A stretch of 7,904 nt of DNA, from IMG/VR virus record IMGVR_UViG_2660238352_000010, positions 1-7,904 of that record; one strand, given 5' to 3'. The DNA comes from a virus. Taxonomy: Duplodnaviria > Heunggongvirae > Uroviricota > Caudoviricetes. The first letter of the stretch is position 1. Every line of letters starts with the position of its first letter. The translations under genes and the position numbers were made by a program. The notes beneath the pieces are model-generated. The model saw nothing but the letters and a program-made list of their open reading frames with translations. It ran no database searches and had not been told where the DNA came from. Shown here in pieces: positions 2,839 through 7,904 of this stretch.

Positions 2839-3582
2839 ATGACAGAGACAGAATCAGCGATTCTGGCGCATGCCCGGCGGTGTGCGCCTGCGGAGTCGTG
2901 CGGCTTCGTGATAAGCACGCCGGAGGGGGAGCGGTATATCCCTTGTGTGAATATTTCCGCAGAGCCGGAGGCGTATTTTCGTATCGCACCGGAAGACTGG
3001 CTGCGGGCAGAGATGCAGGGGGAGATTGTGGCACTGGTCCACAGTCATCCCGGTGGACTGCCCTGGCTGAGCGAGGCCGACCGGCGGCTGCAGATAAAAA
3101 GCGCACTGCCCTGGTGGCTGGTCAGCCGGGGTGACATTCACAAATTCCGCTGCGTTCCGCACCTGACGGGACGGCGCTTTGCGCACGGGGTGACGGACTG
3201 TTACACGCTGTTCCGGGATGCATACCATCTGGCAGGCATTGATATGCCGGATTTTCATCGCGGGGATGACTGGTGGTGCAACGGTCAGAACCTTTACCTG
3301 GACAATATGGAGGCAACGGGCTTTTACCGGGTGCCCCTGTCCTCTGCACTGCCGGGCGATATCCTGCTGTGCTGCTTCGGCGCATCGGTGGCTAATCATG
3401 CCGCCATTTACTGCGGCAACGGTGAGCTGCTTCACCATCTGCCTGAACAGCTGAGTAAACGGGAGAGGTATTCCGAAAAATGGCAACGACGAACGCATTC
3501 TGTCTGGCGTCACCGCCACTGGCACGCATCTGCCTTCACGGGGATTTACAACGATTTGGCCGCCGCCTCAGCCTGTATGTGA
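2839..3582 (+). CDS. K: Tail tip assembly protein K (MPN/JAMM plus NlpC/P60 domains), 247 aa
   Basis: The product is close to lambda gpK (MTETESAILAHARRCAPAESCGFV…). It has a complete JAMM motif H68-x-H70-x7-S78-x2-D81 (VHSHPGGLPWLSEAD) and an NlpC/P60-type Cys121 (VTDCYTLF) with downstream His residues. The start is 5 nt after the L stop. It overlaps I by 103 bp. Confidence 0.9.
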   Translation: MTETESAILAHARRCAPAESCGFVISTPEGERYIPCVNISAEPEAYFRIAPEDWLRAEMQGEIVALVHSHPGGLPWLSEADRRLQIKSALPWWLVSRGDIHKFRCVPHLTGRRFAHGVTDCYTLFRDAYHLAGIDMPDFHRGDDWWCNGQNLYLDNMEATGFYRVPLSSALPGDILLCCFGASVANHAAIYCGNGELLHHLPEQLSKRERYSEKWQRRTHSVWRHRHWHASAFTGIYNDLAAASACM

Positions 3583-4160
3583 ACACGGCAGCGGAAGCCA
3601 TCCGCGCACTGTCGATGCAGGTGCCGGGCTTTCGCCGTCAGATGAACGAAGGCTGGTACCAGATACGCATTGCCGGTGAGGATACGGCACCGGAGGCGGT
3701 GTATGCCCGCCTTCACGAACCACTGAGTGAGGGAACGGTTATCCATATTGTGCCGCGACTGGCCGGGGCCGGAAAGGGTGGACTGCAGATTGTGCTGGGG
3801 GCGGCAGCCATCGTGGGCTCTTTCCTCACGGCCGGTGCCTCGATGGCGTTATGGGGTACAGCCCTGAGTGCCGGCGGTTTTTCTGCCACCACGATGCTGT
3901 TTTCACTGGGGGCCAGCATGATTCTGGGTGGTGTGGCCCAGATGCTGGCCCCGAAGGCAAAAACACCGGATTACCGCGCAACGGATAACGGCAGACAGAA
4001 CACGTATTTTTCGTCACTGGACAACATGATTGCCCAGGGTAACCCGATGCCGGTGCCTTACGGGGAAATGCTGGTTGGCTCCCGCCGTATATCCCAGGAC
4101 ATCAGTACCCGTGATGAAGGCGGGTGCGGAAAGGTCGTGGTTATCGGGCGGCAGGGGTAA
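3480..4160 (+). CDS. I: Tail tip assembly protein I (ubiquitin-like N-terminal domain, hydrophobic Gly/Ala-rich C-terminal half)
   Basis: The product MATTNAFCLASPPLARICLHGDLQRFGRRL…MLAPKAKTPDYRATDNGRQNTYFSSLDNMIAQGN…VVVIGR aligns along its length with lambda gpI as I recall it. A GG sits at residues 100-101 after the Ubl region. The stop is TAA at 4158-4160. Confidence 0.9.
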   Translation: MATTNAFCLASPPLARICLHGDLQRFGRRLSLYVNTAAEAIRALSMQVPGFRRQMNEGWYQIRIAGEDTAPEAVYARLHEPLSEGTVIHIVPRLAGAGKGGLQIVLGAAAIVGSFLTAGASMALWGTALSAGGFSATTMLFSLGASMILGGVAQMLAPKAKTPDYRATDNGRQNTYFSSLDNMIAQGNPMPVPYGEMLVGSRRISQDISTRDEGGCGKVVVIGRQG

Positions 4161-4167
4161 AAAGAAT

Positions 4168-4201
4168 AAAAAAAATCCCGCAGTGATCGCGGAGCTGCGG
4201 G
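4168..4201 (-). terminator. Rho-independent terminator, minus-strand orientation
   Basis: A 7 bp stem (cccgcag 4177-4183 pairing with ctgcggg 4195-4201) with an 11 nt loop. On the + strand it is preceded by A8 (4168-4175), so the minus-strand RNA ends …CUGCGGGAUUUUUUUU. There is no U-tract on the + side. Confidence 0.6.
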
Positions 4202-4262
4202 GACAGACAAAGATTAGAGTTAAGGAGTTGTTTTTGTTACTCGGGCAAAAAAACACTAACGC
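4168..4262 (-). ncRNA. Candidate prophage-encoded small RNA (~95 nt), minus strand, between tail genes I and J
   Basis: The unit is bounded by a near-consensus sigma70 promoter (TTCACA, 16 bp spacer, TATAAT) with a predicted TSS near 4262, and by the intrinsic terminator at 4168-4201. No plausible ORF is contained. The predicted RNA is 5'-GCUGCGUUAGUGUUUUUUUGCCCGAGUAACAAAAACAACUCCUUAACUCUAAUCUUUGUCUGUCCCCGCAGCUCCGCGAUCACUGCGGGAUUUUUUUU-3', with a CA-rich tract and an anti-SD-like CUCCUU. Confidence 0.45.
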
Positions 4263-4268
4263 AGCGAA

Positions 4269-4296
4269 ATTATACGCGCCACAGTCAGTTTGTGAA
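4269..4296 (-). promoter_or_regulatory. Sigma70 promoter on the minus strand (-35 TTCACA, 16 bp spacer, -10 TATAAT), with an A/T-rich upstream region
   Basis: On the + strand, ATTATA at 4269-4274 is the reverse complement of a perfect TATAAT, and TGTGAA at 4291-4296 is the reverse complement of TTCACA (5/6 to TTGACA). The minus-strand sequence upstream of the -35 (…ggcataaaaattctgaatatc) is A/T-rich and UP-element-like. Confidence 0.55.
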
Positions 4297-4368
4297 AATG
4301 TGAAGATATTCAGAATTTTTATGCCATTACCGGTTTTTACCAACAGGATTATCGGTGGACATGAAAGA

Positions 4369-4404
4369 AAACCCCGGTATCTGCTGATACCGGGGTTTCT
4401 CTTT
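4369..4404. terminator. Bidirectional intrinsic terminator: perfect 13 bp stem, 4 nt loop, U-rich tracts on both strands
   Basis: aaaccccggtatc (4369-4381), loop tgct, gataccggggttt (4386-4398). The + strand is followed by TTCTCTTT; the minus strand is followed by UCUUUCAU after the stem. It lies about 100 nt upstream of the J start and about 70 nt upstream (minus sense) of the minus-strand promoter. Confidence 0.6.
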
Positions 4405-4501
4405 AGCATGGCAGAAATGTGTTTCATGCTTTTCGGGCGAAGGATATCCGACTTCTGTACGGAATGGCAAGTGGCGGTTAATTTATTCAGGGGAAGGCTG
4501 T

Positions 4502-7500
4502 ATGGGAAAAGGTGGCGGTAAGGCACACACGCCTCGTGAGGCGAAGGATAATCTCAAATCCACGCAGATGATGAGCGTGATTGATGCGGTTGGTGAGGGA
4601 CCGATAGAAGGCCCGGTGAAGGGACTGCAGAGTATCCTGGTGAACAAAACCCCGCTGACGGACACGGACGGTAATCCCGTGATACACGGTGTGACGGCGG
4701 TCTGGCGCGCCGGGGAGCAGGAGCAGACACCACCGGAAGGCTTTGAGTCCTCCGGAGCTGAAACTGTACTGGGCGTGGAAGTGACGAAGGCAAAACCGGT
4801 GACGCGCACCATTACGTCCGCGAACATTGACCGCCTGCGGGTTACCTTCGGGGTGCAGTCACTGGTGCAGACCACGTCAAAGGGTGACCGAAACCCGACA
4901 TCCGTCCGCCTGCTGATTCAGTTACAGCGTAACGGTAACTGGGTGACAGAAAAGGATGTCACCATTAACGGCAAGACCACCTCGCAGTTTCTGGCGTCGG
5001 TGATTCTGGATAATCTGCCTCCCCGTCCTTTTAACATCCGGATGGTCCGGGAGACGGCGGACAGCACCACGGACCAGTTGCAGAACAGAACACTCTGGTC
5101 ATCGTACACCGAAATCATCGATGTGAAACAGTGCTACCCGAACACGGCGATTGTGGGGCTGCAGGTGGATGCGGAGCAGTTCGGTGGTCAGCAGATGACG
5201 GTGAACTACCATATCCGCGGTCGCATCATCCAGGTGCCGTCAAACTATGACCCGGAAAAACGCACCTACAGCGGTATCTGGGACGGCAGTCTGAAACCGG
5301 CATACAGCAACAACCCGGCCTGGTGCCTGTGGGACATGCTGACTCACCCGCGCTACGGGATGGGAAAACGTCTGGGGGCGGCGGATGTGGACAAGTGGGC
5401 GCTGTATGCCATCGGGCAGTACTGCGACCAGACGGTCCCGGATGGTTTCGGGGGCACAGAGCCGCGGATGACCTTTAATGCGTACCTGGCACAACAGCGT
5501 AAGGCGTGGGACGTTCTCAGTGATTTCTGCTCGGCGATGCGCTGTATGCCGGTATGGAACGGCCAGACGCTGACGTTCGTTCAGGACCGCCAGTCGGATG
5601 TGGTGTGGCCGTACACGAACAGCGATGTGGTGGTGGATGATAACGGCGTGGGGTTCCGCTACAGCTTCAGTGCCCTGAAGGACCGGCACACGGCGGTGGA
5701 GGTGAATTACACCGACCCGCAGAACGGCTGGCAGACCTCCACGGAACTGGTGGAAGACCCGGAAGCCATACTGCGCTACGGACGCAACCTGCTGAAGATG
5801 GATGCGTTCGGCTGCACCAGTCGCGGTCAGGCCCACCGTGCCGGGCTGTGGGTGATAAAGACAGAACTGCTGGAAACGCAGACGGTGGATTTCACACTCG
5901 GGTCACAGGGGCTGCGGCACACACCCGGTGACATCATTGAAATCTGTGATAACGACTATGCCGGAACCCTGACCGGCGGACGTGTCCTGTCCATTGATGC
6001 TGCCACCCGCACCCTGACGCTGGACCGTGAAGTGACACTTCCGGGGACAGGTACATCGACGGTGAACCTGATTAACGGCAGCGGTAAGCCGGTGAGTGTG
6101 GACATCACCGCACACCCCGCGCCGGACCGGATACAGGTCAGTACCCTGCCTGATGGTGTGGAGACATACGGGGTGTGGGGACTCTCCCTGCCGTCACTGC
6201 GCCGTCGCCTGTTCCGCTGTGTCTCCATCCGGGAAAACACGGACGGCACCTTTGCCATCACGGCAGTGCAGCACGTACCGGAAAAAGAAGCCATTGTGGA
6301 TAACGGAGCCCGCTTTGAGCCGCAGTCAGGCACCCTGAACAGCGTTATCCCACCGGCAGTGCAGCACCTGACGGTGGAGGTGAGCGCAGCTGACGGCCAG
6401 TATCTGGCGCTGGCGAAATGGGACACGCCGCGGGTGGTGAAGGGCGTGCGCTTCAGTCTGCGCCTGACCAGTGGAAGCGGTGAGAACAGCCGCCTGCTGA
6501 CCACCGCCATCACTGCCGATACGGAGCACCGTTTCAGTGGCCTGCCTCTCGGGGAATACACCCTGACGGTCAGGGCGATTAACAGCTATGGCCAGCAGGG
6601 CGAACCCGCCACCACCACGTTCCGGATTAACGCACCGGCAGCGCCTGCCGGTGTTGAACTGACGCCGGGGTATTTTCAGATAACGGCGGTACCGCGTCTT
6701 GCGGTGTATGACCCGACGGTGCAGTTTGAGTTCTGGTTTTCGGAGGCAAAAATTGCAGACGCCGCACAGGTGGAAACCTCTGCCCGTTATCTGGGGACCG
6801 GCAGTCAGTGGAGTGTCTCCGGCCCGCACATTAAGCCCGGAAAGGATTTCTGGTTTTATGTGCGCAGCGTCAACCTGGTGGGTAAATCTGCTTTTGTGGA
6901 AGCCAGTGGACGGGCGAGCAATGATGCTGCGGGCTATCTGGAACTTTTCCGGGAAAAGATAGGAAAAACGCATCTGGCAGAGGCGCTGTGGGCAGAGATT
7001 GACAACAGTCAGCTGAAGGACGAGATGGCGGAAATGCAGACCACCATCACAGAAACCCGCAATGAAATCACACAGACGGTCAGTAAAACGCTGGAGGACC
7101 AGAGCGCCACCATACAGCAGATACAGCGCGTGCAGAAGGACACAAATGATGACCTTGCTGCACTTTACATGCTGAAGGTACAGAAAACAAAAAATGGCAT
7201 ACCCTATGTTGCCGGTATTGGAGCGGGGATTGAGGATACTGATGGCCAGCCCCTGAGCAACATACTGCTGCTGGCTGACCGTATTGCGATGATTAATCCG
7301 GAGGACGGCAACACCACGCCGTTATTTGTGGCGCAGGGGAATCAGTTGTTCATGAACGATGTGTTCCTGAAGCGGCTGTTTGCGGTGAGTATCACCTCGT
7401 CCGGCAATCCCCCGACGTTTTCCCTGACGCCGGAGGGCAGGCTGACCGCAAGAAATGCTGATATCAGCGGTAACGTGAATGCGAATTCCGGGACGCTCAA

Positions 7501-7904
7501 CAACGTCACGATTAACGAGAACTGTCGGGTTCTGGGAAAACTGTCCGCGAACCAGATTGAAGGCGATCTCGTTAAAACAGTGGGCAAAGCTTTCCCCCGG
7601 GACTCCCGTGCACCGGAGCGGTGGCCATCAGGGACCATTACCGTCAGGGTTTATGACGATCAGCCGTTTGACCGGCAGATTGTTATTCCGGCGGTGGCAT
7701 TCAGTGGCGCTAAGCATAAGAGAGAGCATACTGATATTTACTCCTCATGCCGTCTGATAGTGCGGAAAAACGGTGCTGAAATTTATAACCGTACCGCGCT
7801 GGATAATACGCTGATTTACAGTGGCGTTATTGATATGCCTGCCGGTCACGGTCACATGACACTGGAGTTTTCGGTGTCAGCATGGCTGGTAAATAACTGG
7901 TATC
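4502..7904 (+). CDS. J: Host specificity / central tail fibre protein J, 3' end truncated by the window edge
   Basis: ATG at 4502 with SD GGGGAAGG upstream. The frame is open to the window end (1134 codons). The N-terminus [39 protein letters not shown]… and long stretches (…[31 protein letters not shown]…, …[34 protein letters not shown]…, …[11 protein letters not shown]…) match lambda gpJ as I recall it. It is absent from the ORF track only because no stop lies inside the window. Confidence 0.95.

Follow-up and report, generated by a model that had tools for sequence, protein, structure and literature searches.

A terminator-type hairpin between an antisense small RNA gene and tail gene J in an Escherichia coli prophage: probably the local version of a recurrent pre-J terminator

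Introduction

Hairpins with the appearance of terminators raise a particular question when they stand between two transcription units that run away from each other, as neither unit would be expected to end there. Such a hairpin is found in the stretch of DNA considered here (the window, 7,904 bp), which is part of a lambda-like tail operon from an E. coli prophage. In E. coli UPEC-245U/190328 the annotation of an identical locus lists tape measure, M-like, L, K, I, J and lom genes. Between I and J lie the gene of a small RNA (sRNA), PasB, which is read leftwards, and next to it a perfect 13-bp inverted repeat. An earlier note, made from the letters of the DNA, had placed a bidirectional terminator in the late operon just upstream of J and had taken it as the insulation of a moron; the placement holds, as the element lies between I and J, and what the hairpin does there is the subject of this report. 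Features of the locus are compiled in Table 1.

Table 1. Features of the I-J region, with window positions unless an accession is given. W and E are the two spacer classes defined in the text.
Feature	Position	Strand	Basis
Tail assembly gene I, upstream neighbour	3579..4160	+	RefSeq annotation, identical locus NZ_CP049845.1
pasB sRNA gene	4168..4262	-	PasB Northern probe match, alignment to NC_011601 1466261-1466343
pasB sigma-70-type promoter, TTCACA-16-TATAAT, 11/12 matches	4269..4296	-	promoter scan; conserved in W and E islands
W right module / J leader, with hairpin and J ribosome-binding region	~4326..4501 (~180 bp)	+	genome counts, alignment
Putative U-tract for leftward termination; minus strand reads TTTTCTTTC past core	4363..4371	-	d ~ +39, top-ranked site
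Hairpin, perfect 13-bp inverted repeat	4369..4398	none	repeat search, folding, shuffles
T-rich tract TTTCTCTTT, putative U-tract for rightward termination	4396..4404	+	d ~ +31 with core stem
Weak candidate promoter-like site, TTGCCA-18-TATCCT, 9/12 matches	4441..4470	-	promoter scan
Tail tip / host specificity gene J, running past window end	4502..7904	+	RefSeq annotation of identical locus
Lambda pre-J hairpin	NC_001416 ~15465-15495	+	sequence, terminator score

The I-J spacer and its small RNA gene

The spacer between I and J measures 341 bp here versus 60 bp in lambda, and its G+C content is 39-43% versus 55-63% in I and J. Of the four promoter-like sites in the window, three fall within this spacer, and all of these are on the minus strand. 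Promoter scans found nothing consistent on the plus strand in or near the pasB island, which counts against reading the hairpin as a terminator that acts ahead of J.

The minus-strand promoter beside the hairpin had been proposed to serve an sRNA, and this proved to be the case, as it belongs to PasB. PasB is an 83-nt, Hfq-dependent RNA of prophage PP6 in enteropathogenic E. coli (EPEC) E2348/69 (NC_011601 1466343..1466261), where it was detected by Northern blot and by RIL-seq (PMC8550237; see also bioRxiv 10.64898/2026.05.13.724894). In E2348/69 it is likewise located between the I and J homologues. The published Northern probe, AATCCCGCAGTGATCGCGGAGCT, matches 4174-4196 of the window exactly and on the plus strand, so the RNA is on the minus strand. 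The allele in the window shares its promoter and terminator with that of E2348/69, from which it differs by a 4-nt deletion and by a few changes in the body. In window positions, the 83-nt RNA of E2348/69 spans 4247..4168, its annotated 5′ end being at 4247; the start predicted here is at ~4262. The terminator of pasB consists of a stem at 4177-4203 followed by a run of eight U (4175..4168) that abuts the stop codon of I.

Three RNAs of enterohaemorrhagic E. coli (EHEC) Sakai, EcOnc22, EcOnc23 and EcOnc24, are ~85 nt long, bound by Hfq and destabilised without it (Tree et al. 2014; PMC4104026). They are located in the I-J spacers of Sp15, Sp14 and Sp11, antisense to tail genes. Between genome versions there is a shift of ~+140 bp, as calibrated on AgvB, which displaces their printed coordinates with respect to NC_002695.2; after this correction the Hfq peaks fall on a pasB-like body, and uncorrected they would wrongly hit the hairpin of the E spacers described below. 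EcOnc22/23/24 appear to be the EHEC homologues of PasB, a pairing left out of the table in the EPEC paper, which gives EHEC homologues for PasA and PasD1 only (PMC8550237). Among 5426 complete E. coli genomes, 1785 contain the pasB-like left module, at 3833 places in total, and the I-J spacers of the inspected RefSeq records carry no annotation, pasB included.

Several other named RNAs were considered and set aside. AgvB and AsxR, as identities for the neighbouring sRNA, are encoded at the PR′ moron site, and Rfam gave no match. HnrS (EcOnc10-12, 66 nt), considered for a hypothetical RNA of ~70 nt discussed below, has Sakai coordinates ~5 kb from AgvB, towards the early side of the late region and not between I and J. 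EcOnc33 and EcOnc54 (Sakai Sp6), considered as matches to the hairpin, are found at the esterase/lysis region and at an L-K moron.

Open reading frames span the spacer on both strands of the window (4030..4521 on the plus strand, 4014..4526 on the minus strand). A coding reading was rejected: in most other variants of the module these frames do not stay open, and they are for that reason most likely due to chance. A small plus-strand ORF antisense to pasB (MKINVMELFFRHQKSNAASLLRLQAIAGNVKSFRNFIPS, MKINV..., 39-41 aa) is seen at 1564-1683 of the VT1-Sakai locus, equivalent to ~4206-4330 of the window; a Shine-Dalgarno-like GGAG precedes it, and it stops shortly ahead of the E hairpin. Only VT1-Sakai and one IMG/VR variant keep it intact; elsewhere it is decayed or without an ATG, the copy in the window having lost its ATG and carrying a 4-bp deletion. 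One possibility is that pasB arose antisense to this ORF, which would then be an ancestral gene of the late operon.

Structure of the hairpin and terminator scores

The two arms of the hairpin, 4369-4381 (AAACCCCGGTATC) and 4386-4398 (GATACCGGGGTTT), are complementary at all 13 of 13 positions and enclose the 4-nt loop TGCT, and together they form the longest perfect short-range inverted repeat of the window. Among 300 dinucleotide-preserving shuffles of the window, in which perfect inverted repeats with a loop of 3-8 nt were counted, the longest repeat per shuffle was 6-12 bp and 13 bp was never reached. Within the stem a G+C core of 10 bp can be recognized (4372-4381 / 4386-4395), and the free energy of folding is ~ -22 kcal/mol on either strand. 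The core is flanked by AAAGAAAA on the 5′ side (4364-4371) and by the T-rich tract on the 3′ side; past the core the RNA would read UUUCUCUUU on the plus strand and UUUUCUUUC on the minus strand, with 7 U among 9 nt on each. The hairpin starts 208 nt past the stop codon of I and ends 103 nt ahead of the ATG of J. With respect to pasB it is located upstream, 72 nt from the -35 element and 107 nt from the predicted start.

A consensus terminator scan ranked the hairpin first in the whole window and called it on the minus strand only. The plus strand was left uncalled because the maximal 13-bp stem absorbs the first three T of the 4396-4404 tract, which also pair with AAA at 4369-4371, and the T-count then fails. 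When the 10-bp G+C core is taken as the stem, the d'Aubenton-Carafa-type scores are those given in Table 1, above 30 on both strands. Core and loop are within the range of intrinsic terminators (a G+C-rich stem of ~5-14 bp and a loop of 3-8 nt). A U-tract follows on the minus strand; on the plus strand it is obtained only if the three basal A-U pairs are counted as part of the tract, which is moreover broken by two C residues, a point that counts against a terminator ahead of J. The A-tract on the 5′ side and the U-tract on the 3′ side provide the symmetry of a bidirectional terminator, and a stop in both directions is predicted because the stem is long here and stands between an A-tract and a T-tract. 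Judged from its letters, this is a strong terminator-type hairpin that can be read two ways, and the earlier description of a perfect 13-bp repeat with a 4-nt loop and U-rich flanks on both strands stands. No match to the hairpin sequence was found in the searchable literature. In Rfam no family reaches its gathering score over the region, where the best overlapping matches score 15-22 bits against thresholds of 40-114. In kind the hairpin is an ordinary intrinsic terminator, previously undescribed.

Bidirectional terminators are placed between convergent units and end both of them. Here pasB (minus strand) and J (plus strand) diverge, and only read-through from I on the plus strand and a hypothetical RNA from 4470..4441 on the minus strand converge on the hairpin. 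Because both annotated units point away, it is not the 3′ end of pasB or of J, and its possible targets are incoming or read-through transcripts and short RNAs that lack annotation; the same had been supposed from the outset, and the leftward course of pasB and the rightward course of J agree with it. Directly after the hairpin, at 4405-4436 on the plus strand, there is a weak second hairpin (AGCATG..CATGCT with a 14-nt loop, then TTTTCGGG) with d ~ -55, that is, with no terminator score.

The minus-strand score, the highest in the window, admits a reading in which the hairpin is the 3′ end of a second minus-strand sRNA. Here a transcript would start at ~4434 from the weak promoter-like site and form an Hfq-type RNA of ~70 nt that ends at the hairpin and UUUUCUUUC, in tandem upstream of pasB. 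Its predicted shape, a 5′ stem-loop, a single-stranded AAAGAGAAA and the terminator hairpin (which would double as the pre-J terminator), is like that of Hfq-dependent sRNAs, and some islands do stack two to three minus-strand units. The fold of 4363-4434 on the minus strand reaches -31.9 kcal/mol (z = -6.9), most of which comes from the hairpin. The promoter-like site is located ~35 nt upstream of the hairpin on this strand, with an A/T-rich stretch further upstream; against it stand the weak -10 element TATCCT and the 18-nt spacer, and one such site in 900 bp is about what chance would give (0.4 expected). Rfam again offers no match at threshold, and the EPEC and EHEC studies report only pasB-type sRNAs (PasB, EcOnc22-24) at I-J spacers, although the loci checked there carry the E hairpin. 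Conservation is uninformative on this point, the module with the hairpin being invariant. A second sRNA is regarded as an unlikely explanation; if it were true, an undescribed prophage sRNA would be present in about one in four complete E. coli genomes.

Modular composition of I-J spacers

Comparison of 60 unique I-J spacers, taken from IMG/VR loci and reference records, resolves two classes: W (338-344 bp), which has the hairpin under study, and E (234-255 bp, plus three longer spacers), which has a different one. The left part of the spacer, with the pasB body in several diverged alleles, pairs with either right part, W or E. The earlier note had suggested a check on whether the hairpin is conserved together with the adjacent promoter; the pasB promoter is present in both W and E islands, and the hairpin differs between them.

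The W right module has 1694 copies, spread over 1446 of 5426 complete E. coli genomes; all copies are at least 95% identical, all are under or next to gpJ, and the J allele that they adjoin is in every case the one starting with ATGGGAAAAGGTGGCGGTAAGGCACAC. In an alignment of 18 unique long spacers the W hairpin is near-invariant: each of two singleton variants loses one pair of the stem, and compensatory changes are absent. So little variation gives the W structure no support from covariation, which counts against reading it as a terminator ahead of J. The E. albertii copy is a variant that also occurs among the E. coli and IMG/VR copies. A scan of the genome collection for the hairpin core (58 matches) gave only chance matches outside Escherichia, with E. 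albertii as the sole exception, and a flank-anchored scan for variants, with a pattern that contained a SNP specific to the window, gave 3 viral and 2 metagenome loci only. A decayed copy of the locus in E. coli NZRM4165 has a truncated I and a frameshifted J, and it has lost the entire pasB unit along with the left hairpin arm.

For the E right module the count is 3716 places in 892 genomes. Its hairpin, (A)CAGGCACC(C)-loop-(G)GGTGCCTG(T), then TTGTTTTT, is on the plus strand and is present in E2348/69, VT1-Sakai, PhiR12 and Sakai Sp9; terminator scores are +19 to +29 on the plus strand and negative on the minus strand. Across 15 distinct variants, pairing is kept in 98.7% of cells, with one compensatory position (C-G / U-G / U-A) and two positions with G-U changes. 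On these comparisons the structural conservation of the E hairpin is modest but real.

The mosaic nature of the spacer, in which pasB alleles are swapped between hairpin types, could also suggest a role for the W element as DNA: save for its loop it is a perfect 30-bp palindrome, which might bind a dimeric protein or act as a recombination hot spot at a junction of mosaic modules. The exchange point between left and right parts is, however, the conserved pasB promoter segment and not the hairpin, the combination of G+C stem, A-tract and T-tract is the pattern of a terminator, and the analogous E hairpin changes as an RNA would (compensatory and G-U changes). A function at the DNA level is considered very improbable.

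Three spacers from IMG/VR (421, 424 and 715 bp) are tandem islands, with two to three pasB-like units and a single plus-strand hairpin on the side of J. A minus-strand terminator and a promoter motif accompany every unit, and in one unit type the terminator differs (CTCCCG..CGGGAG). Fragments that resemble the 3′ end of I are present between the units, which suggests that these stem from duplication by recombination.

These comparisons bear on the view that the hairpin insulates the moron, by isolating the pasB unit, blocking antisense transcription from J and stopping transcription that exits towards J. Morons are defined by having their own promoter and terminator (PMC3594210; Juhala/Hendrix definition). 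The position of the hairpin, 72 nt behind the pasB -35 element, its best score on the minus strand, and the outward-facing terminators at both island edges (that of pasB on the left, the hairpin on the right) would all fit such a role. E2348/69, however, lacks the W hairpin and has no minus-strand terminator in that slot, and it expresses PasB; neither the W hairpin nor a minus-strand terminator at that place is therefore needed for PasB expression, and the notion that the sRNA depends on the hairpin has to be given up. Nor does the hairpin end the transcript of the moron, as PasB ends at its own terminator (4203..4168), and it does not travel with the moron, the same pasB alleles being found with the W or the E hairpin. 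The linkage of the W module is to a single J allele, with no such tie to any one pasB allele, and tandem islands have a single hairpin. Insulation specific to the moron thus finds little room, and we hold it to be as doubtful as the second sRNA.

Hairpins ahead of J in other phages

The slot before J was also inspected in other phages, at about a dozen hand-picked loci that do not form a systematic sample. The 60-bp I-J spacer of lambda, which is without pasB, reads GTG-AAACCGCC-TGCG-GGCGGTTT-TGTCATTT, ~25 nt before J, and this type of hairpin is common to E26 and mEp460. HK022 and Klebsiella phage 020009 share GCCACC..GGTGGC followed by T7, Serratia phage Ulliraptor has GCCCC..GGGGC and T7, the T1-like phage Rogue1 has CCCGC..GCGGG and T6, and Acinetobacter phage Acba_16 has GGCGCT..AGCGCC and T6. 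Altogether six further hairpin types in eight other phages are on the plus strand, 20-70 nt ahead of J, and score +25 to +39. No type resembles another, and none is annotated in the records inspected. With W and E included, eight unrelated hairpin types occupy one pre-J slot. No pre-J hairpin is present in four phages whose I and J genes are directly adjacent or overlap (Vibrio H20, phi1026b, Mcat19 and "rolling"). The hairpin of the window falls in with the proposed grouping of pre-J terminators (a plus-strand hairpin with a T-run in the I-J spacer, within ~100 nt of the J start), its stem ending 103 nt before the ATG.

The occurrence of such hairpins in lambda and in five other siphophage lineages indicates that the pre-J terminator is independent of the pasB moron, which is a further argument against insulation as its purpose. 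In HK022 two annotated moron genes, gp22 and srb/gp23 (the latter on the opposite strand), are present in the I-J slot upstream of its hairpin (locus positions 1-300); as morons are found there too, extra genes seem to have landed at the I-J junction repeatedly.

The hairpin of the window could alternatively matter for the RNA and not for its termination, either as a barrier to 3′ exonucleases that protects the upstream tail-gene segment of the antiterminated late mRNA or as a protective 5′ stem for the J segment after the duplex between pasB and the late mRNA has been cut. The great stability of the W hairpin (~ -22 kcal/mol) and the 80-95-nt stretch immediately upstream that is perfectly complementary to an abundant sRNA are consistent with this, and since an antiterminated polymerase should ignore terminators, a role at the RNA level would provide a function in lytic growth. 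All eight pre-J hairpin types are nevertheless followed by a T-run on the plus strand, a signature of termination for which a decay barrier has no need, and we rate a stability or processing element as improbable, more so than either insulation or a second sRNA.

A probable local pre-J terminator

Since the plus-strand role recurs across lineages, goes with J and is independent of pasB, the hairpin is read as a local pre-J intrinsic terminator. It is probable, with considerable room for doubt, that it serves as a Rho-independent terminator in the J leader, with its conserved task on the plus strand, and that it is the local version of a terminator that recurs before J. The earlier proposal that it stops transcription into J that is not antiterminated remains the best explanation, as unrelated plus-strand hairpins recur in the same slot.

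Polymerases without the late antiterminator would move rightward out of I and across the antisense pasB island; the nascent RNA would fold into the hairpin, and release would follow at ~4399-4406, ahead of J and the genes downstream. Antiterminated late transcription would be expected to read through, by extension from the established biology of lambda. On the same DNA, leftward transcription is predicted to stop at ~4363-4368, which would shield the pasB promoter from antisense transcripts of J or of the J leader. A minus-strand terminator would be a property of the W version only, and it may shield the pasB promoter or end the RNA of ~70 nt. Termination itself, the read-through under antitermination and any role on the minus strand are what we infer from these features. 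The low G+C content of the spacer and the 60-bp spacer of lambda fit the insertion of the pasB moron between I and a pre-existing pre-J hairpin.

With this reading pasB, and EcOnc22-24 in EHEC, are placed in a set architecture of I, one or more antisense sRNA units, a plus-strand terminator and J, an arrangement that roughly one in three complete E. coli genomes contains and that no inspected RefSeq record annotates. As unrelated hairpins fill the pre-J slot in lambda, HK022-like, T1-like, Serratia, Klebsiella and Acinetobacter phages, the comparison suggests that selection has favoured a terminator or attenuator ahead of the large, low-copy tail-tip gene in the tail operons of siphophages. 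Should this hold, it would bear on the silencing of J, lom and tail-fibre genes in lysogens, on the setting of their dose in phages without Q-type antitermination, and on the I-J junction as a favoured landing site for morons.

Comparison with known systems

Bidirectional terminators with an A-tract, a G+C stem and a U-tract were reportedly described in the SEnd-seq study of E. coli by Ju, Li and Liu in 2019. The present hairpin is like bidirectional Rho-independent terminators in its 10-bp G+C core with added A-U pairs, its 4-nt loop and its folding energy of ~ -22 kcal/mol, and unlike them in that it is not located between convergent genes, pasB and J pointing away from it.

The island as a whole resembles lambdoid morons (PMC3594210): its spacer is extra with respect to lambda and lower in G+C, and pasB has its own promoter and terminator. 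The hairpin, in contrast, is not the terminator of the moron, which is at 4177-4203, and is linked to J and not to pasB. With regard to PasB and EcOnc22-24, it merely adjoins the sRNA gene and is outside the 83-nt RNA.

The E hairpin (E2348/69 PP6; Sakai Sp9, Sp11, Sp14 and Sp15; VT1-Sakai; PhiR12) shares with that of the window the slot between the pasB promoter and J and a G+C stem (8-10 bp in E) with a T-run on the plus strand. The two are unrelated in sequence, the E hairpin is unidirectional and without a T-run on the minus strand, and its distance to J is ~45-55 bp versus 103 bp here.

The hairpins of lambda, HK022, 020009, Ulliraptor, Rogue1 and Acba_16 differ in that their stems are shorter (5-6 G+C pairs), that they score on the plus strand only, save for a marginal minus-strand score in Ulliraptor, and that no pasB island is located upstream of them. 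They are like the hairpin of the window in what they have in common with one another, a G+C hairpin and T-run on the plus strand within a tightly packed tail operon.
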